From positions 1-41,350 of the IMG/VR virus record IMGVR_UViG_3300045988_014834: a DNA stretch of 41,350 nt. The stretch is one strand, 5' to 3'. Position numbers and translations under genes: made by a program. Each line of letters opens with the position of its first letter. Positions within the stretch are counted from its first letter, which is position 1. Of this stretch, positions 140 to 41,350 are shown one piece after another. The notes beneath the pieces are model-generated. The model was not told where the DNA came from and made no database searches. It saw nothing but the letters and a program-made list of their open reading frames with translations. This DNA is from a virus. Lineage: Duplodnaviria; Heunggongvirae; Uroviricota; Caudoviricetes.

Positions 140-556
140 CTACTTTTCCTGTAATGCTTTGCGCTCGGCGTTATGGAACGCGGCCACCTGTGTACCTAAT
201 GCCCTGAACTGGTCCAGCAATTTGTTAAATGCTTCTTTAGAGAAAGGCTCATCGAAGCTCCAGCCGTTTACGACTTCTGCCGCGAGTTGTCGGTTGAGGT
301 CTTCGGCCAGTTCGTTAACCGCCAGGTTATATTCAGTATAGTCGCCGGATTCTTTGGCGGCTTTTTCCAGCTCTTCGAAACGCGCCAACCCGCGGCGGTA
401 CGCGATAATGAAAGCACGTCCGGCTTTAACGGCGGCATCCGCATCGGGACTTACAACGTTAAGCCACTCCCCTGAGTCTTCGCCATTTGGCAGGAGAATT
501 GGCATCTTCTTGCCTACCAGTGCTTTCTCTTCGAAATAAAAATCAGAAAGTTTCAT
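140..556 (-). CDS. Tail assembly chaperone (lambda G-like), 138 aa
   Basis: Sits between major tail protein and tape measure genes on the late strand; its 3' end is overlapped in the -1 frame by an ORF that runs to the tape measure start. Confidence 0.5.
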   Translation of the reverse strand: MKLSDFYFEEKALVGKKMPILLPNGEDSGEWLNVVSPDADAAVKAGRAFIIAYRRGLARFEELEKAAKESGDYTEYNLAVNELAEDLNRQLAAEVVNGWSFDEPFSKEAFNKLLDQFRALGTQVAAFHNAERKALQEK

Positions 557-664: not shown

Positions 665-693
665 TTGCACACCCCAATATAATAGGGTACTAT
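665..693 (+). promoter_or_regulatory. Early promoter: -35 TTGCAC, 17-nt spacer, -10 TACTAT
   Basis: Sequence TTGCACACCCCAATATAATAGGGTACTATTCAC, nearly identical copies at 8523 and (reverse) 20188-20216. Confidence 0.6.
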
Positions 694-723
694 TCACTCA
701 CACCAACAATGAAGGAGTTTAAA

Positions 724-915
724 ATGTCCAGTTTACCAGTTTCCTTAATTCTGTTTGCACTACTAGCTTATTTTGCACCTTTCCTGGTTGCGTACTTCCG
801 TAATCATAAGGCGAAGTTAGCTATATTCATGGCTAACCTGTTTCTTGGTTGGGCTCTGCTGCCGTGGGTCTTTATTTTAATCTGGGCGTGCAACTCGAAT
901 GTTAACGAGAAGTAA
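724..915 (+). CDS. Small two-helix membrane protein, superinfection-immunity-like (Imm family pattern), 63 aa
   Basis: AAGGAG 6 nt upstream of the ATG at 724; two hydrophobic helices; motif YF.P....YFRNH...LAIF.ANLFLGW...PW..ILIWA matches my recollection of the Imm_superinfect family. Confidence 0.55.
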   Translation: MSSLPVSLILFALLAYFAPFLVAYFRNHKAKLAIFMANLFLGWALLPWVFILIWACNSNVNEK

Positions 916-953: not shown

Positions 954-2084
954 ATGGCCCAGAAGAAAATAACCGACGAACAGTTACAGGAAGAATTGAA
1001 CGCCGGGATGAAGAATATCGACATTGCCCGTAAATACGGCATCTCCGACCGCGTTATTCGTATTCGCAAAGCGAAGCTGGCTAAGAAAGGCGTAGGCCAC
1101 GGGCGTGACGTTAGCCATCTCGTGCCGGACGGCTACAAGATTAAAGGAACGTCATCCCTGGTGGACGAGTTCGGCAACACTAAGCTGCAATGGGTTAAGA
1201 CCGACACCGATGCGGAACGTCAGGTCGAGTTAATGAAGGCCGTAATCGAGGGCATGAAGTCAGAGATTACCCCTGTTGCGCCTGTTAAAGCGACTCGAGC
1301 CAAACGCGACGACAAGCTACTCAATCTTTACACTGTATCTGATTTCCATCTCGGTATGCTGGCATGGGCCGACGAGAGCGGCGACGACTGGGATATGAAG
1401 ATTGCAGAAGACCTGTTCTCCCGCTGGTTCGATGCCGCGTTTCAGAAAGCACCGGATGCTGGAACAGGGGTTATTAACCTGCTGGGCGACCTTGCACACT
1501 TTGATAGTCTGGATGCCGTTACCCCGGCGAGTGGTCATGTTCTTGACGCCGACACCCGTTACCAGAAACTTGTCCGCTACATGATTCGCATGGTCCGCCG
1601 TGTTGTAGATATGGCGCTCGTTAAGCATAAAAATGTTCGCTTGCTTATTGTGCAAGGGAACCACGACGAGAGTGGCATGATTTGGTTAGCTGAGATGTTC
1701 AGTACGCTGTACGACAATGAGCCTCGTGTGTTCGTCGATACGTCGCCGGATGTTTACAAGATGGTGCAACACGGCAAAACGACGTTGTTCTTTACACACG
1801 GGCATAAATGCCGGTTTGAGGTGGTCGAACCCATTATGATAGCTAAGTTCAGAAAAGCATTTGGCGAAAGCGAGTACAGTTATGCACATGTTGGGCATCT
1901 CCACCACCAAAAGATCGTAGAAAGCAGGAATATGGTAGTGGAGCAGCATCGCACTCTCGCGGCGAAAGATGCATATGCTTCTCGCGGCGGGTGGATGTCG
2001 GGCCGTAGTGCAAACGTAATTACTTATAGCGCCGAATATGGCGAGGTCGCACGTTTAACTATTTCACCGGAGATGCTGGGATGA
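954..2084 (+). CDS. HTH domain fused to a calcineurin-like metallophosphoesterase, 376 aa
   Basis: N-terminal HTH-like segment (NIDIARKYGISDRVIRIRKAK); ordered phosphoesterase motifs DFHLG, GDLAHFD, GNHDE, HGH, GHLHH. Confidence 0.6.
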   Translation: MAQKKITDEQLQEELNAGMKNIDIARKYGISDRVIRIRKAKLAKKGVGHGRDVSHLVPDGYKIKGTSSLVDEFGNTKLQWVKTDTDAERQVELMKAVIEGMKSEITPVAPVKATRAKRDDKLLNLYTVSDFHLGMLAWADESGDDWDMKIAEDLFSRWFDAAFQKAPDAGTGVINLLGDLAHFDSLDAVTPASGHVLDADTRYQKLVRYMIRMVRRVVDMALVKHKNVRLLIVQGNHDESGMIWLAEMFSTLYDNEPRVFVDTSPDVYKMVQHGKTTLFFTHGHKCRFEVVEPIMIAKFRKAFGESEYSYAHVGHLHHQKIVESRNMVVEQHRTLAAKDAYASRGGWMSGRSANVITYSAEYGEVARLTISPEMLG

Positions 2085-2311
2085 CTTCAAAATATGACCA
2101 TACACTCACCAACACCGCAGGCGATTCCATTACATGTGATGTTTATGATGTGCTAAGGGCCTTCGTTATCCACGACCCCGCGCTACAACACGCATTAAAG
2201 AAACTGCTATGCATGGGCGGCAGGGGGCATAAGGACGCGGATACAGACCTTAACGAAGCAATTGAAAGTCTGGAGAAGTTACGGGAGTACCGAAGTAATA
2301 TTGATGAGTAA
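2081..2311 (+). CDS. Hypothetical protein, 76 aa, coupled to the phosphoesterase gene
   Basis: ATGA stop/start overlap with the upstream gene; followed by a hairpin terminator. Confidence 0.45.
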   Translation: MTSKYDHTLTNTAGDSITCDVYDVLRAFVIHDPALQHALKKLLCMGGRGHKDADTDLNEAIESLEKLREYRSNIDE

Positions 2312-2340
2312 GAAAAAGGCCCCGAAAGGGGCCTTAGTTT
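2312..2340. terminator. Bidirectional intrinsic terminator (GGCCCC-GAAA-GGGGCC)
   Basis: Perfect GC hairpin flanked by an A-run and a T-run, between convergent genes. Confidence 0.7.
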
Positions 2341-3512
2341 TATGCGTAGGTTATACGCTGAATAACAATAGACGACTGGTACTGATTGCCTGTGGACTGT
2401 CCTTCTATGCTTTGGGTGATTGACTCAGGCCCGCCAATCTCTGGTGTAACCGCCGTAAGTTCCGCGCGTTTCAGGCTGAAAGACATAGCCCCGTTTACCC
2501 CCGCCAGAATAGAGTTAATCTCTACCTGCTGCTCGTTGATAAACTTCTGAATCATCGCCATGTCGTACAGTTTACCGGAGATGGAGAAGGTGTTAGCTGC
2601 ACGGCTACGCTCCACAAACGCTACGTTAGTGTTACCAAGTTCGAACTGTGCGGACGCGCTGTTATCGTTGGTGATGGTCAGACTGTCACAACGCAACGGC
2701 GTAGAGCCGTCGAACACGGAAACGTCAACCGAGGAGAATGGCTCGTCACCAAACGTAACAGAGGAGAAATCAGAACCTGTCGGCGGCTCGGTGAGAATCT
2801 CCTGGCTGCGCCCGATGAACGGGAAACTGCCCGTTACCATCGCATTAACGGCCTGCTCGACAGTGAAACCGGAAACTTCCACACCTTTAGTAAGCGTGTA
2901 CGCGTCAGCCCCGCCGCACTGCCCTTTGTACCAGGTGAGAATAGAGAACGTCTTGCACTGGCTTCCTGTTTCCAGTTTATCCCCTGTCTTAGCGGCGGTA
3001 GTTACTGTCTCAGTGGTAAGAGTATGTTGGATACCCGCACCTGTAACAACAGTTGCACTTACCTCGGTTACGATAAACGGTTTTGCGTTGTCGCCCGTTA
3101 AGTCGGTAAACGCAATCAGGTCGCCCACTTCAATGCCGTCGGTAATAAAGCTGCCATCAGCACGGGTGAACGTCTTGCCCGCCGGTGCGACGGTAATCGA
3201 CAGCCCGGACAGAAAAACACCGGATTGCCACGTAGAGCCTAACGCGCCCGCTAACCAGTCATCCTGGCTTTTCGAGCTAAGCTCAATAGCATATTCACCA
3301 CTAACCTGTTTGTTACCGGTGCGGATGGACGTAGTTTCACGGCTGCCATCCAGTTCGTTGGAGGTCAGCGTGTCACGGGTAATGGCAGGAACGCCACCTG
3401 TGTTACGCAGCGGCGACCATACCGGGTTACTTGGTGTTACGCCCGGGGTAACTTCCGCCACATAGAATTGCGCGGTATTCGCGCCCTTAAAAGGAGTTGT
3501 AGCCATATTCAC
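2340..3512 (-). CDS. Major tail (tube) protein, 390 aa
   Basis: Position between neck genes and tail chaperone; Thr/Ser/Gly-rich beta-type composition; terminator immediately downstream. Confidence 0.5.
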   Translation of the reverse strand: MNMATTPFKGANTAQFYVAEVTPGVTPSNPVWSPLRNTGGVPAITRDTLTSNELDGSRETTSIRTGNKQVSGEYAIELSSKSQDDWLAGALGSTWQSGVFLSGLSITVAPAGKTFTRADGSFITDGIEVGDLIAFTDLTGDNAKPFIVTEVSATVVTGAGIQHTLTTETVTTAAKTGDKLETGSQCKTFSILTWYKGQCGGADAYTLTKGVEVSGFTVEQAVNAMVTGSFPFIGRSQEILTEPPTGSDFSSVTFGDEPFSSVDVSVFDGSTPLRCDSLTITNDNSASAQFELGNTNVAFVERSRAANTFSISGKLYDMAMIQKFINEQQVEINSILAGVNGAMSFSLKRAELTAVTPEIGGPESITQSIEGQSTGNQYQSSIVIQRITYA

Positions 3513-3925
3513 AGCCTCTTGGTGAATGCAATAAAGTTAATTGACAATGGCCGTTTGGCCCATCCGTTTTCTACAATCAGCGGCCCCAGGCTAACCGATT
3601 GAACCTCGGCGCAGATGTCGTTACGTGAAAATGACTTACCTGCCTTAAACGCCGTGTTAAGTAAGTCTGCCATTTTATTGATTGGCGCGCTACCTTTCAC
3701 CGATGCGTAGTTAATATCTACCTGATAGACGCCAGCGCGTTGCTCGGTGAAGAACAAATCCGCCTGCTCCGTATCCGCCAGCAACATGTAACTCGCCAGA
3801 TACGCCGTATCGGTTGACGTCGGCGCGTCGATATTTTCGAGCGCGACCTTGATGCCGTTGGCGGTTCCGAAGGCTACCAGCGGCACATCGAACGCTTTTG
3901 TTAAGTCCTCAAAGTAGCCCATCAT
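3509..3925 (-). CDS. Neck/tail completion protein (hypothetical), 138 aa
   Basis: Coupled late-strand gene between capsid and tail genes. Confidence 0.35.
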   Translation of the reverse strand: MMGYFEDLTKAFDVPLVAFGTANGIKVALENIDAPTSTDTAYLASYMLLADTEQADLFFTEQRAGVYQVDINYASVKGSAPINKMADLLNTAFKAGKSFSRNDICAEVQSVSLGPLIVENGWAKRPLSINFIAFTKRL

Positions 3926-4317
3926 TTCACCTTGTTGGCTTCTTCGTTAATGAGTTGCTGGAATCGGGACACGTTAGTTCTGACAACCCCGGCGGGCGCT
4001 TGCTGCGACCAGCCATACTCCAGCCGTTGTGCGTACGGCAGATTATTTGTCAGCGTGAACTCGCGCCAGTCTGCTGCTTTCAGCACGAAACCCGTAGCGT
4101 TTCCGGTTGCTGTGGCCCCTGATTTATCGGTAGCATCTGTAACCCCGTAAGCAGGTGTTCCACCAGATGCCATCCAGTTCATACGAAAGCGGCCTGTATC
4201 TACCGGACTCGCCTTTATGATAGCGGAAAACAGCTTGATAGACACCTGACGCATCACCTTCTCGGGGTTCTTCTTCGCCTTTTCCACGAACTTAGAGACG
4301 TCAAGCGCGAAACTCAT
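3922..4317 (-). CDS. Head-tail joining protein (hypothetical), 131 aa
   Basis: Synteny in the late operon. Confidence 0.35.
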   Translation of the reverse strand: MSFALDVSKFVEKAKKNPEKVMRQVSIKLFSAIIKASPVDTGRFRMNWMASGGTPAYGVTDATDKSGATATGNATGFVLKAADWREFTLTNNLPYAQRLEYGWSQQAPAGVVRTNVSRFQQLINEEANKVK

Positions 4318-6030: not shown

Positions 6031-6999
6031 TCACTTGTCCGCGTCGGCGATTGCCAGAGTACCGAGGGTGTGTTTGTTCTCGGCAACAGCTTTGTCCCAG
6101 TTGGTCGCGGTGAACAGTTCTGCGTCCAGCGGAGATTTACCGCCGTTGGCGACATCCCAGCTATAGCCTTTCAGTTTCAGGCCGAAGCTGTAATCCGCCT
6201 GCCAGGTGGTCTGGATGCGGGTGTTACCGTTGCTGGTATCAATGTTGCTGATAATGTCAGAAGCATTATCAACGATGATGCCGTTTGCAACTACTGACAG
6301 GACCTTAGTCTTGTTCGGAGTACCAGCTTCGTACAGCGCAGGGATGTCGGAGATCACATAACGCTTACCGAGAACATCGACAACCATAACGTTACCAGCA
6401 ACGAACAGCTGGTTTGCGTTAGTCAGCGCTTTATCTACCAGCGTGTGATAAGCAGCACCAGTCATGATGTCGGTAATCAGCAGCTGAGACTGGTCGCCGA
6501 ATTTAGCGTGGCTGTTGTTCAGCACGTTCAGGGACAGACCCACGGTTGCAGATACGTCGTTAACCAGCGCGGCCTGACCAGATACCGCCGCAACAGCTGC
6601 GCCAACAGCAGTGTTGAGCTGGTCCGCTAACAGTGCGTCAGAGAAGCCTTCGGAAATAGCACGAATCGCGCTCGCCGGGTCTTCGTTAAGCCAGGTCATT
6701 TGCGCAGGCTCGAACAGTACCGGTCCGAAGCCGCCAGCGACTTTAACGCCTACATGCTCGCCCTGAGTCAGCGCGGTAGCTGCCTGAGACGCGATAGCGG
6801 CGTAACGGTCAACGCGGCGTTTAGCGGAGGCAATCTGGTTAAAGAAAGACTCACGTGAGAAGTCACCGCGCCATGAAGCGGTAGACAGTACAATTGCACC
6901 ACCGGAGGCTGCGTTAAACTGGTCAGTTTTCTGGCCAAGCAGTTCGATAGTGGTACCGACGATGTCGTCGTTATAAACCTTCATATCTGACAGAGACAT
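6031..6999 (-). CDS. Major capsid protein, 322 aa
   Basis: Follows the scaffold gene; size and composition typical of an HK97-fold capsid protein; attenuator hairpin downstream. Confidence 0.65.
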   Translation of the reverse strand: MSLSDMKVYNDDIVGTTIELLGQKTDQFNAASGGAIVLSTASWRGDFSRESFFNQIASAKRRVDRYAAIASQAATALTQGEHVGVKVAGGFGPVLFEPAQMTWLNEDPASAIRAISEGFSDALLADQLNTAVGAAVAAVSGQAALVNDVSATVGLSLNVLNNSHAKFGDQSQLLITDIMTGAAYHTLVDKALTNANQLFVAGNVMVVDVLGKRYVISDIPALYEAGTPNKTKVLSVVANGIIVDNASDIISNIDTSNGNTRIQTTWQADYSFGLKLKGYSWDVANGGKSPLDAELFTATNWDKAVAENKHTLGTLAIADADK

Positions 7000-8522: not shown

Positions 8523-8551
8523 TTGCACACCCCGATATAATAGGGTACTAT
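8523..8551 (+). promoter_or_regulatory. Early promoter copy (TTGCAC N17 TACTAT) driving the methyltransferase
   Basis: TTGCACACCCCGATATAATAGGGTACTATTCAG. Confidence 0.6.
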
Positions 8552-8579: not shown

Positions 8580-9308
8580 ATGTTTACTTTGAAACGTGGG
8601 GATTGTCTGGAGTTGATGCATGACGTACCAGATAAGAGTGTAGACCTTATTTTATGCGATTTACCTTATGGTACGACGCAAAACAAATGGGATACGGTAA
8701 TACCTTTCGATGCCCTATGGGGCCATTACATGCGTATTTCTCGCGGTGCTATTGTGCTAACAGCAGCGCAACCTTTCACTAGCGCGTTGATTATGAGTAA
8801 TGCTAAATTGTTCAAATACTCGTGGGTTTGGGATAAGGCAAATAGCACTGGATTCCTTAACGCTAAAAAGCAACCTTTACGCCGAACAGAGGACGTGGTT
8901 GTATTTTATGGCTCACAGCCAACCTATAACCCTCAAATGGAAGTTAGAGGTAAGCCCCGTAAGAAAGGTGGGTATATTAAAAAAGACGGCTCTGACAACT
9001 ATGGGTCTTTTAAAAGTGTAGAATCTGTTAGTAATGATTACTACCCCACCAATTTGATAGAAATATCTAATGCTAATAGGTCGGAAAAGTGCCACCCCAC
9101 CCAAAAACCAGTAGCGTTGATGGAATACCTGATTAAGACGTATACAAACGAAGGGGATACAGTTCTTGATAACTGTATGGGCAGCGGGACGACCGGAGTT
9201 GCGTGTGCGAACACAAACCGGAAGTTTATAGGCATGGAGTTAGACCGTGATTACTTCCGTATAGCCAGAAGACGCATATCTGAAGCATATAAAACTAAGG
9301 CCCCTTAA
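8580..9308 (+). CDS. Orphan DNA methyltransferase (N6-adenine/N4-cytosine beta-class), 242 aa
   Basis: Catalytic-motif region DLILCDLPYG followed later by the AdoMet motif HPTQKP...VLDNCMGSGTT; no restriction enzyme partner nearby. Confidence 0.85.
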   Translation: MFTLKRGDCLELMHDVPDKSVDLILCDLPYGTTQNKWDTVIPFDALWGHYMRISRGAIVLTAAQPFTSALIMSNAKLFKYSWVWDKANSTGFLNAKKQPLRRTEDVVVFYGSQPTYNPQMEVRGKPRKKGGYIKKDGSDNYGSFKSVESVSNDYYPTNLIEISNANRSEKCHPTQKPVALMEYLIKTYTNEGDTVLDNCMGSGTTGVACANTNRKFIGMELDRDYFRIARRRISEAYKTKAP

Positions 9309-32826: not shown

Positions 32827-32855
32827 AAAAGGCCCCTAAAGGGGCCTTAATTTTA
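32826..32855. terminator. Bidirectional terminator (GGCCCC-TAAA-GGGGCC) between replication arm and tailspike
   Basis: Perfect hairpin with flanking A and T runs. Confidence 0.7.
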
Positions 32856-38172: not shown

Positions 38173-38654
38173 ATTCGTGGAAACGTCGATTGTGCGGTTC
38201 CGTAGGCTTTAAGGAAACATCCCAGCCCATCACCATAGCAACCATACAAATCCGGCAGATTGTTAACAAGACACTGGTTCTCAAGGTCCTGGAACGGCGA
38301 TTTCTCGGCGGTTGCCGTGAAAGTAATCGTCCAGTTAATGCCGTCTTCGGTGGACTCAGCGATGGTGGACGTGATGGTTACCTGGTAATCCTCGATACCC
38401 ATGCCGAAGTCATGCGCCATCCAGAAACTTGACGCACCGCCATCGACTTTCTCAAGGAACGACAGAAACGCCTGCCGCCCTAGCGCCGATGTAATCAGGG
38501 TTACGCTGACAGGGAACACGTCGTAATACGTGTCACGGCCCTGGCGCACCCCGCCGCCAGCTAAATCAACGCTCCATACGTTGTTGCGTCTGGTCATTGA
38601 GTAGCCTTTCGACACTATAGGACGGAGGCCACGTGGGAAATATAAGTCGCTCAT
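38154..38654 (-). CDS. Minor/distal tail protein (lambda M-like), 166 aa
   Basis: Immediately downstream of the tape measure gene. Confidence 0.4.
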   Translation of the reverse strand: MSDLYFPRGLRPIVSKGYSMTRRNNVWSVDLAGGGVRQGRDTYYDVFPVSVTLITSALGRQAFLSFLEKVDGGASSFWMAHDFGMGIEDYQVTITSTIAESTEDGINWTITFTATAEKSPFQDLENQCLVNNLPDLYGCYGDGLGCFLKAYGTAQSTFPRIWDPMQ

Positions 38655-41077
38655 TATTTGAACCCCGGCGCGTTTCTTGTGGCCTTGCGGGCCTTGCTAA
38701 TCTTACTGTTGCTGTTCTGCAAAGAGGCCGCCACTTGCTCCTCGATGATGATGCGCAAACGACCTTCATCATCTTGTTCGGTGGATACGCGGCCAATCTG
38801 ACTCGATGTGTTATTTACAATGGTAACATTAGTTGGTCCGCTATTTCCGCTATTATCGCCGTTTAACTGTTGTCGTGTTTGGCTTGCGTTCACCGCGCGC
38901 CCCGCCCCTGCCATCTTGATAATCTCGGGGCCGCGCTCACCAACAAGATAGCTGCCGCCCGCGTTCATTTGACCTCCTTGTTCGCGGAACCCCGTTAAGG
39001 CTAACGCTTGGGTACCCGCAACCGTTGATGTGATGCCTGCCATCGCCGGTGCGCTGTTTGTCCCTAGAGTAGCCAGGGACGCCATAGCTGCAGCGGGGGC
39101 ATACGCTGCAGCAATCGCCGCGCCGGTAGCCGATGCTGTCGCGATGGACGCCGCGGATGCCATTTGTCCTATAATCATGTTTTTCAGGTACTCCACCCCC
39201 ATCTGCGTTAGCCCTGAAACGACTGAGGACAGAATGGCGTTACCGAGGTTCGCCATTGCTTCGCTAGCGGTCTGTGTGCCGTTAATGAGGCCAACTATGG
39301 AGCTGGATGCGGATGCACCAACAGCGTCAAGGGAATCCATTAACATATTGTTCCACTCGGACTGGTTGCGGAAACGCTCCTCGGCCGCGGCGGCCAACCC
39401 ATCGTTATACTGCTTGTCCAGTTCAGCCCGTGCCTGCAACGCGACTTCATGTACGGAGTTTTCTTGTGCCTCATATTCCTCTATAACCGCAAGACGCTTC
39501 TGCCGTTCAAGCTGTAAGTTTGCTATGGGGTCGATTGATGCCAGAACCGCTACACCTTGTTGCAGTTTTTTCTGTTCCTCGGCTAACTCTTTATCAATAG
39601 CGTCTTGTCGTTTTTGCCCGTATTGAAGAACTATTGCGGTTTTCGCCTTTTCATATTCTTCAGCAGTTAGCGCCCCTTCTTTTCGGTATTTAGCGGCCTC
39701 CTTAAGTTTCTGCTGTTCCTGAGCGTCAATAGCCTTTAACTCGTCGTTGTTCTGACGGGCCAGAGTATCGAGATAATCTTGCGCCTGTTTACGCAATTGC
39801 TCCGCTTTCTTAGCGGCGGCTTTCGCATCTTTGTCGTTGGTGTTTCCGGCTCCGCCATTTCCGCCCTTTTTATTAACAAGGCTGGCCAAGTCAATTTCCT
39901 GCTTCTTGCGCTCGTCGTACTGCTTGCGCTGTTCCTCAATTTCTTTCTTACGCTGCTTAGACCTGTTGGTAATGGCCTGTGATTCCGCCTCTGCGCGTTT
40001 TATGCTGGCGGCGTATGCGGCGTCGGCCTCTGCGGTCAGGTTTTTAAATGTGAGCGCTGCCGTTTTGCTCGGGTCAAACACGTCGGCAAGGGTCTGTCCT
40101 AACGCTACGGCGTAATCGTCAATGCGCTGGAACCACGCAATAACCTCGTGGAATGTCTGCTGGATGTCAGGCAGCCACTCACGGATAGCGTCCGGTATAG
40201 TTCCCAGCGAGTCGGACATATCAACGGATTTGTCCTCTGTATCGAATGCCAGGTCATCCAGGGCATCAGAAATAAACTTGAACGACTCATTGAACAGCGT
40301 TACCCAATCCTGGAGCGTGGCTGCTATCTCATTAGACGCTATAGCGTCGGTGAGCGCTGTAATAGCATCTTCCGCTGTTGCTGCTTGTTCACCTACCGCG
40401 TCACCAAAACCGGATTGTGCTACCGCGAGAACAAGGCCATCGAAGGAGTCGGCGAGGCTTGACAATTGACCGTCTAATGTCTTCGAGCGCGTCTCCATCG
40501 CTCCGGCGAAATCAGTGTTGCCAATGTTTAGCAGGTATTTCTGAATCTCTTCGGAGTTCTTCTTAACCGTGGTTGTTACGCCGCGGAACGTGAAAGAAAC
40601 GGTATCCGCCTGTTGCGACGACTTGATGCCAAACTCTTTTAGTCGCTCAAACTCAAAGGTACTGGCGTCGGCAACTGCCTCAATCATCTGATTAAGGTCT
40701 TTACCCATCGCCGCCGCGGTGTTGCCGTAGGAGATTAATGCCTCTTTGCTGGGGTTCAGACCCAGGGCCACCAGCTTAGTAAAGCCTTCCACCGCCTGAT
40801 TAAGCCCGTATGGTGTTTCTTTTGCGAACTGTTGCAGGACGCTGAAAGCCTTAGCCGCGTTCTCTGCGCTTCCGGTCATCGTGATGAGGCCGGAGTTCAG
40901 CTTGTCGAAGTTGCGCTGGGAGTCCACCAGCGCGCTGAATACCTGCTTAGCAGTTTCCAGACTGACAACGGCGGCGGCGGCAGCGCCCGCAGCTTTGGTA
41001 AGCCCGTTCAGTTGTGATGTGGTTTTATCGACGCCGGTCGATGATACTCGTACTATCAAACTAGCGGTATCAGCCAT
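38654..41077 (-). CDS. Tail tape measure protein (track start is a TTG at 41092; likely ATG at 41077)
   Basis: Long Ala/Gln/Glu-rich coiled-coil protein with Gly-rich C-terminal region; sits between chaperone and minor tail genes. Confidence 0.8.
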   Translation of the reverse strand: MADTASLIVRVSSTGVDKTTSQLNGLTKAAGAAAAAVVSLETAKQVFSALVDSQRNFDKLNSGLITMTGSAENAAKAFSVLQQFAKETPYGLNQAVEGFTKLVALGLNPSKEALISYGNTAAAMGKDLNQMIEAVADASTFEFERLKEFGIKSSQQADTVSFTFRGVTTTVKKNSEEIQKYLLNIGNTDFAGAMETRSKTLDGQLSSLADSFDGLVLAVAQSGFGDAVGEQAATAEDAITALTDAIASNEIAATLQDWVTLFNESFKFISDALDDLAFDTEDKSVDMSDSLGTIPDAIREWLPDIQQTFHEVIAWFQRIDDYAVALGQTLADVFDPSKTAALTFKNLTAEADAAYAASIKRAEAESQAITNRSKQRKKEIEEQRKQYDERKKQEIDLASLVNKKGGNGGAGNTNDKDAKAAAKKAEQLRKQAQDYLDTLARQNNDELKAIDAQEQQKLKEAAKYRKEGALTAEEYEKAKTAIVLQYGQKRQDAIDKELAEEQKKLQQGVAVLASIDPIANLQLERQKRLAVIEEYEAQENSVHEVALQARAELDKQYNDGLAAAAEERFRNQSEWNNMLMDSLDAVGASASSSIVGLINGTQTASEAMANLGNAILSSVVSGLTQMGVEYLKNMIIGQMASAASIATASATGAAIAAAYAPAAAMASLATLGTNSAPAMAGITSTVAGTQALALTGFREQGGQMNAGGSYLVGERGPEIIKMAGAGRAVNASQTRQQLNGDNSGNSGPTNVTIVNNTSSQIGRVSTEQDDEGRLRIIIEEQVAASLQNSNSKISKARKATRNAPGFK

Positions 41078-41350
41078 GATTTCTACCTTCAAAGATTGCT
41101 TCTAAGCCCATGATAATGTCTATCTCGAACAGGCTAAGCTGTTTTTGCGTAACATCGAGATAGGCTTTCAGGTCTTGCCACGTAACGGATTCTCTTGCGA
41201 ACAATACTACAGCGTCCTCGCGCGCGTGTCGCGTAAACTTAATGTCGCAATACGTCTCAAAGGTGGATATAAAAAGGGGTGGGCATTCTGGCCCACCCCG
41301 TCGCGCTGCACGTTTTTTCTTATCGATTACACCCATCGCGATAAGCGCCT
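41070..41350 (-). CDS. T-like -1 frame extension of the tail chaperone; in the circular genome it continues as 56-170
   Basis: Open minus-strand frame from the stop at 171-173 through the junction to 41070, ending in overlap with the tape measure ATG; no convincing own start codon. Confidence 0.45.
   Translation of the reverse strand, partial: ALIAMGVIDKKKRAARRGGPECPPLFISTFETYCDIKFTRHAREDAVVLFARESVTWQDLKAYLDVTQKQLSLFEIDIIMGLEAIFEGRNHG
41276..41299 (-). terminator. Terminator-like hairpin GGGGTGGGC-ATTCTG-GCCCACCCC with T5 on the minus strand
   Basis: Read from sequence; lies inside the chaperone extension frame. Confidence 0.4.
41296..41350. repeat. Second copy of the 55-bp terminal repeat
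   Basis: Identical to 1-55. Confidence 0.9.

Follow-up and report, generated by a model that had tools for sequence, protein, structure and literature searches.

The question raised by this locus is what a gene of 63 codons, set at the head of a plus-strand cassette between the minus-strand tail genes of a virulent phage, does for that phage. The DNA analyzed (hereafter the window, 41,350 nt at its full length) is the genome of a Kagunavirus (Guernseyvirinae) that shares about 90% identity with Escherichia phage P AB-2017 and related phages. Nucleotides 1-55 of the window are the same as nucleotides 41296-41350 (identical ends, a k=55 overlap), hence the assembly is complete and circular, with a genome of 41,295 bp once the overlap is counted only once. 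No integrase is found among the large ORFs of the window or in the annotated relative, in agreement with the first-pass annotation, which had described an apparently virulent phage with no integrase.

The features of the locus are collected in Table 1. The first-pass annotation had also placed the gene, imm, first in its cassette, and imm indeed heads a three-gene plus-strand operon, in the order promoter-like element, imm, exonuclease gene, gene for a 76-aa protein, and terminator, with minus-strand tail genes on either side. The same three-gene plus-strand arrangement between tail genes is present in Kagunavirus and Jerseyvirus relatives. The hairpin that closes the operon also lies 3' of the major tail gene on the minus strand, and a near-identical bidirectional terminator hairpin (AAGGCCCC-nnnn-GGGGCCTT in both) is found at 32829-32848; at each of the two sites plus-strand and minus-strand gene blocks converge. 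The exonuclease scores slightly under the cut-offs of the Pfam families Metallophos_2 and Metallophos, and its N-terminus gives a weak GerE-like HTH match (E=0.012). The 76-aa protein matches positions 150-220 of 235 in PHROG 2452 and positions 172-237 of 246 in PHROG 17613 ("ATPase"), i.e., it corresponds to the C-terminal part only of longer proteins of relatives, which are annotated as ATPase or unknown. The content of the cassette 3' of the exonuclease varies: some relatives have a phosphatase/polynucleotide-kinase-like gene and an ATPase gene there (L001 2580-3619; L005 13785-14824; L007 3783-4640); in the window and in Bas74 the 76-aa gene, matching the C-terminal part of those longer proteins, stands alone after the exonuclease.

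Table 1. Coordinates of the imm locus and of the related sequence elements in the window.
Feature	Coordinates	Strand	Remarks
Promoter-like element TTGCAC-N17-TACTAT (TTGCACACCCCAATATAATAGGGTACTAT), copy 1	665-693	+	ahead of imm; kept at this place in both Kagunavirus and Jerseyvirus
Promoter-like element, copy 2	8523-8551	+	ahead of DNA methyltransferase island
Promoter-like element, copy 3	18336-18308	-	ahead of small-gene units
Promoter-like element, copy 4	20216-20188	-	head of leftward unit, divergent control region
Shine-Dalgarno (SD) AAGGAG	712-717	+	6 nt 5' of ATG 724; read from the sequence
imm, 63-aa Imm-family (PF14373) small membrane protein	724-915	+	predicted helices 3-25 and 29-62
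Exonuclease, operon gene 2, 376 aa	954-2084	+	metallophosphoesterase-type "DNA repair exonuclease"; PHROG 704, E=8e-167
76-aa gene, operon gene 3	2081-2311	+	start overlaps exonuclease stop (ATGA)
Bidirectional intrinsic-terminator-like hairpin AAGGCCCC-GAAA-GGGGCCTT	2316-2335	both	8-bp stem, 6 GC pairs, T-rich tails on both strands
Major tail gene	2340-3512	-	beyond 3' end of imm operon
Tail assembly chaperone, divergent neighbor of imm	140-556	-	Pfam Phage_TAC_4 and PHROG 15027
Tape measure protein, 807 aa from ATG 41077	38654-41077	-	ORF, hydropathy; annotated as tape measure in relatives

The imm ORF runs from ATG to TAA (63 codons and a stop; product MSSLPVSLILFALLAYFAPFLVAYFRNHKAKLAIFMANLFLGWALLPWVFILIWACNSNVNEK). 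Relatives differ on its start, giving products of 68, 63, or 59 aa. The upstream in-frame ATG at 709, used for the 68-aa product in several GenBank records, is not preceded by an SD and is missing in Jerseyvirus SETP13, hence 724 is the better start; a purine-rich SD is found at the same distance from the imm start codon in relatives. For codons 26-63, pN/pS is 0.03-0.11 between two Kagunavirus alleles (A, that of the window, and B), which differ by many synonymous changes, and 0.21 against Jerseyvirus; for the N-terminal 25 codons within allele A it is 0-0.07, i.e., purifying selection again. Thus, imm is a working gene under purifying selection, not a chance ORF.

Several other candidate features around imm were considered and set aside. 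A minus-strand ORF at 804-941 (45 aa) was dropped, as it has no support. A terminator-like hairpin inside imm (816-837) is conserved only in part among relatives, is missing from SETP13, and lacks a true T-run; it was taken to be a side effect of the coding sequence. Small ORFs called within the promoter region of relatives are probably spurious because they are not intact in the window. Such "hypothetical" ORFs across the imm promoter region belong to the annotation noise of public relatives, as do the three choices of imm start and one exonuclease called from a start within imm (examples of this noise are L001 1097-1222, L002 1068-1181, and L007 2566-3786).

By profile comparison, the product is a member of the Imm family (Pfam PF14373, Imm_superinfect). 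The first-pass annotation had proposed this family and had suggested a profile search, which gives E=3.9e-13 and 49.5 bits (gathering score, 27.9), with residues 16-56 covering profile positions 2-42 of 42, i.e., the whole domain. The motif on which that proposal relied, YF.P....YFRNH...LAIF.ANLFLGW...PW..ILIWA, matches residues 16-55 exactly. The protein also matches PHROG 1039, "immunity to superinfection" (E=3.2e-22, 80.3 bits); T4 Imm has been placed in the same PHROG (PMC9409062). Searches with Imm gave no match among NCBIfam models and no sequence match to any PDB chain at E<=1. The protein also fits the family in size and shape, being small (63 aa, with about 60-100 aa expected), with two hydrophobic stretches and a short basic loop. 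Kyte-Doolittle hydropathy places the stretches at approximately 4-25 and 32-56, split by the loop R26-N-H-K-A-K31, and an AlphaFold2 model based on a shallow alignment of 10 sequences (a word-indexed protein search gave only nine close clusters) has helices at 3-25 and 29-62, with mean pLDDT of 77.5; hence, the earlier description of a 63-aa product with two hydrophobic helices holds.

A tblastn search finds Imm in 366 phage records, mostly Salmonella and Escherichia Guernseyvirinae (Kagunavirus and Jerseyvirus) and a few Straboviridae, with the best matches at 98.4% identity. Many of these records are already labelled "superinfection immunity protein" or similarly; orthologues annotated under that name include AQN31949.1 (P AB-2017), XPK43187.1 (Bas74 SonjaBuckley), and YP_008767023.1 (Salmonella phage SETP13). 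The Kagunavirus allele A orthologues are 98% identical to the window protein (one or two residues apart) and occupy the same place between the chaperone and exonuclease genes, and the position of the locus is conserved in both genera, Kagunavirus and Jerseyvirus. The differences are that some orthologue records give 68 aa from the upstream ATG, and that the N-terminal helix differs in allele B and in Jerseyvirus. Several Guernseyvirinae genome papers name the gene, by homology only. Since it is annotated in close GenBank relatives and mentioned in genome papers, neither the gene nor its annotation is new, and both are routine in the Kagunavirus group. The result therefore adds little to the catalogue: the standard annotation is confirmed, and the function in this lineage stays at the level of analogy.

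The family is best known from T4, a strictly virulent phage whose Imm is the founding member of PF14373; T4 also uses Spackle, against its tail lysozyme. The first-pass annotation had called a gene of this type unusual cargo for a virulent phage. This was wrong, because T4, the source of the type member, is itself virulent, and virulent Guernseyvirinae account for nearly all of the phage copies that tblastn detects. T4 and the window phage are both virulent phages of E. coli, and T4 Imm (NP_049660.1; gene sequence taken from NC_000866), like the window protein, passes the PF14373 gathering score (58.2 bits), is small and very hydrophobic, and has a basic loop; the hydropathy profiles of the two proteins are superimposable. 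Their sequences share only 26% identity (ungapped BLASTP, 54 aa, E=2e-10), and the window protein is shorter (63 against 83 aa), beginning seven residues later and lacking the charged tail, some 20 residues long, at the C-terminus of T4 Imm. When the proteins of Kagunavirus alleles A and B, Jerseyvirus SETP13, Straboviridae phage LPCS28, and T4 are aligned, nine residues are invariant, P19, A23, R26, I34, F35, L39, W43, W48, and W54, so that the Pro, the Arg, and the three Trp positions are shared by T4 and the window. Here, R26 and W43 align to R33 and W50 of T4 Imm, and both are invariant in the two Kagunavirus alleles, Jerseyvirus, a Nanhuvirus, and T4. The genes differ in location: in T4, imm is placed between genes 42 and 43, within the early replication-gene region, whereas the window imm lies inside the tail module, beside the genes for the chaperone and the tape measure protein.

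Mechanistic data for the family come from a 2026 preprint on T4 (bioRxiv 10.64898/2026.03.06.709160), in which Imm, an inner-membrane protein with its N-terminus in the periplasm, co-purifies with the tape measure protein gp29 and is imaged bound to the gp29 helical-bundle domain, in a complex of low resolution. Its binding is reported to disturb the interplay of this domain with the gp29 transmembrane segment, and the substitutions R33A and W50A weaken exclusion (bioRxiv 10.64898/2026.03.06.709160). The residues needed for exclusion by T4 Imm are invariant as R26 and W43 in the window protein, hence a block of tape-measure-mediated entry was taken as the most likely function. We hold with moderate confidence, by analogy with T4, that imm encodes an inner-membrane exclusion protein which would block tape-measure-mediated genome entry of superinfecting relatives. 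Transcribed from its own putative host-RNA-polymerase-type promoter as the first gene of a three-gene operon within the tail block, imm would yield a helical hairpin in the inner membrane, with the basic loop R26-K31 predicted to be cytoplasmic and the N-terminus periplasmic (by hydropathy and the positive-inside rule). Following the T4 model, this hairpin may bind the incoming tape measure protein at its membrane-inserting part and prevent a conduit from forming; the genome of a later phage, whether of its own kind or a related one, would then be kept from passing the inner membrane of the infected cell. Our literature search found no experiment on any Guernseyvirinae Imm.

The target itself differs between the two phages. 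The window phage is a siphovirus, and its tape measure protein is unrelated in sequence to T4 gp29; BLASTP of the Kagunavirus tape measure protein against gp29 detects no similarity, hence homology between them was rejected, and the Imm target is not transferable by homology. The tape measure protein is a hypothesised target class, by analogy with gp29. A hydrophobic Ala/Gly-rich segment lies near residue 653 of the window tape measure protein, and a hydrophobic peak near residues 616-653 is common to all tape measure variants of the group. The length of this protein varies: it is 807 aa in the window and in L017, and in other loci 756-760 or 778-779 aa. Even among otherwise close relatives the C-terminal third is hypervariable, with the hydrophobic peak always kept.

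Other inner-membrane exclusion proteins for which a similar mode is proposed, i.e., a small protein blocking genome translocation, are HK97 gp15, suggested in the discussion of the T4 preprint to act through the tape measure protein (bioRxiv 10.64898/2026.03.06.709160), and P22 SieA, listed as an exclusion protein (PMC10883804). They come from a siphovirus and a podovirus, respectively, belong by description to other protein families, and are expressed from prophages, not during lytic infection. The preprint further likens T4 Imm to a small membrane protein that stops membrane insertion of an incoming helical pore-forming domain, as an analogy with no homology claimed (bioRxiv 10.64898/2026.03.06.709160).

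Co-variation of Imm with the tape measure protein was assessed for 23 loci with flanks from IMG/VR (L010-L032), which are not independent samples. The Imm N-terminal helix is of two types in Kagunavirus, MSSLPVSLILFALLAYFAPFLVAYF in allele A and MTGITMFFLIIIVLVYFIPFLVAHM in allele B, while the C-terminal 38 residues are almost identical between them. Allele A goes with type 1 neighbors (chaperone 96-99% and tape measure 58-97% identical to the window), and allele B with type 2 (54-56% and 37-39%, respectively). This pairing of imm positions 724-798 with chaperone and tape measure type is seen in 21 of the 23 loci; the other two, L019 and L029, are recombinants. The intergenic spacer between the two divergent segments is 95-98% conserved. 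Jerseyvirus SETP13 has a type 2 chaperone and tape measure, and a third Imm N-terminus. The association holds strongly over the chaperone and the first two thirds of the tape measure protein, but is not seen in the hydrophobic C-terminal third, which varies independently of the Imm allele (e.g., L010 versus L017); the next gene beyond is also uncorrelated. An association that fades with genome distance is the pattern expected of simple linkage, which is not separable from functional matching here, so the co-variation looks like linkage, and neither supports nor excludes functional matching of Imm with the tape measure protein.

The bolder suggestion, that the Imm N-terminal helix sets a specificity matched to the chaperone/tape-measure type, forming "exclusion groups" in Guernseyvirinae, and that Imm is a general blocker of tape measure conduits across myoviruses and siphoviruses, perhaps also acting, given the bacterial and conjugative homologues described below, against other DNA-delivery machines, is a speculation that we regard as unlikely.

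Homologues of Imm are also found outside phages. A scan of one genome per bacterial species gave 135 confirmed bacterial homologues, 36-63% identical, from many phyla. Three contexts were sampled (L035 4983-5174, with neighbors at 2044-4308 and 6207-6830; L057; L078): two have housekeeping neighbors (Chryseobacterium and Oceanobacillus), and the third, in Candidatus Velamenicoccus archaeovorus, has conjugative-transfer genes (TraG/TraD-like and TraE). The homologue in the conjugative cluster hints at roles of the Imm family beyond phage exclusion. As homologues are widespread in bacterial chromosomes, two of the three sampled beside housekeeping genes, the family name may over-generalise from one characterised member, and a family broader than phage exclusion leaves room for rival readings, in which Imm acts on a host membrane component or has another role in the membrane.

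The first of these, in which Imm excludes through a host inner-membrane component or a general membrane property and not by binding the tape measure protein, seems to us considerably less likely than the tape measure reading, and is the alternative to be taken most seriously. It would explain why the Imm core is near-invariant although the tape measure proteins are only 37-39% identical between types and hypervariable in their hydrophobic C-terminal third; it would also accommodate a window tape measure protein with no similarity to gp29, and homologues in bacteria with no phage context. Nevertheless, the sole mechanistic data for the family, those on T4, show Imm bound directly to its tape measure partner, the T4 interface and core residues are conserved in the window protein, and the hydrophobic segment is conserved in all tape measure variants, all of which argues for the tape measure as the target.

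That exclusion is not the main function, and that Imm serves in protection against lysis from without, in lysis timing or membrane integrity, or in the phage's own replication, is unlikely. Function in Guernseyvirinae Imm is assigned by homology, some bacterial homologues lie among housekeeping genes, and the paper on the Kagunavirus transcriptome (PMC12645636) loosely ties the gene to lysis and puts it in the last temporal class. However, imm is far from the lysis genes (in P AB-2017, the holins and endolysin are near 28-29 kb and the spanins near 20.5 kb), no holin family is among the Pfam matches of Imm and no other family reaches threshold, and the residues needed for exclusion in T4 are conserved.

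Less probable still, and in our view very unlikely, is a broad, moron-like spectrum, with Imm directed against unrelated competing phages rather than the phage's own kind. A core invariant across two genera could mean a target common to many phages, and imm lies within a variable accessory cassette; but none of the PADLOC-DB defence models matches Imm, the exonuclease, or the 76-aa protein, and T4 Imm is described in PMC7677548 as acting on T4 and close T-even phages. Finally, the notion of a chance ORF or mis-annotation, to which the 63 codons and the disagreement of relatives over the start lend some colour, is refuted by the Pfam match, the distribution over 366 records, and the low pN/pS with many synonymous changes, along with an SD and a synteny conserved in hundreds of genomes.

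The upstream sequences bear on the expression of imm. A sequence TTGCAy-N17-TAyTAT upstream of imm is conserved in Kagunavirus and Jerseyvirus. The full element, cTTGCAC-ACCCCrAyATAATAGgg-TACTATTCA, is present in the window in four near-identical copies, where 0.77 are expected, and these align over approximately 36 nt; in P AB-2017 the corresponding places hold three copies, where 0.01 are expected. Downstream of each copy, at 25-35 nt, are an SD and a start codon. The element fits the class of host-RNA-polymerase (sigma-70-like) promoters, and is a putative promoter on the strength of this resemblance. Together with the SD and start codon downstream of each copy, this makes early or continuous expression of imm plausible. 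A perfect TATAAT is found at 678-683, within the spacer of the element at 665-693. The spacer is also conserved, and a short inverted repeat inside it (ACCC...GGGT) could be an operator.

The only Kagunavirus transcriptome, that of K1B4, assigns imm to the "late" class, with DNA polymerase and methylases, unlike the 42 of 57 phage genes that fall in the "middle" class (PMC12645636). In that study, "late" genes peak after 100 min (up to 120 min) and the phage latent period is 30 min; as the classes thus extend well past the latent period and the "late" one includes DNA polymerase, the K1B4 assignment says little on the timing of imm (PMC12645636).

The intergenic region between imm and the divergent chaperone gene also holds a conserved block at 598-660, nearly invariant from Kagunavirus to Jerseyvirus, with an inverted repeat formed by TGCGCC (598-603) and GGCGCA (639-644), and a small hairpin with a T-run (CGGGAACCACCCGCTTTT). 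A possible role of this block is in the control of the chaperone/tape-measure transcript.

Phage cocktails make use of Kagunaviruses and Jerseyviruses, and if imm works in exclusion, closely related members of a cocktail would interfere in co-infected cells. These small, tractable siphoviruses, in which natural Imm alleles occur alongside very different tape measure proteins, would hence be a convenient system for testing the generality of the conduit-block mechanism proposed for T4.

Besides the imm cassette, the minus-strand structural block of the window is interrupted by another plus-strand island, formed by a DNA methyltransferase gene (PHROG 67) at 8580-9308; the promoter-like element found ahead of imm precedes this gene as well, and P AB-2017 lacks it.
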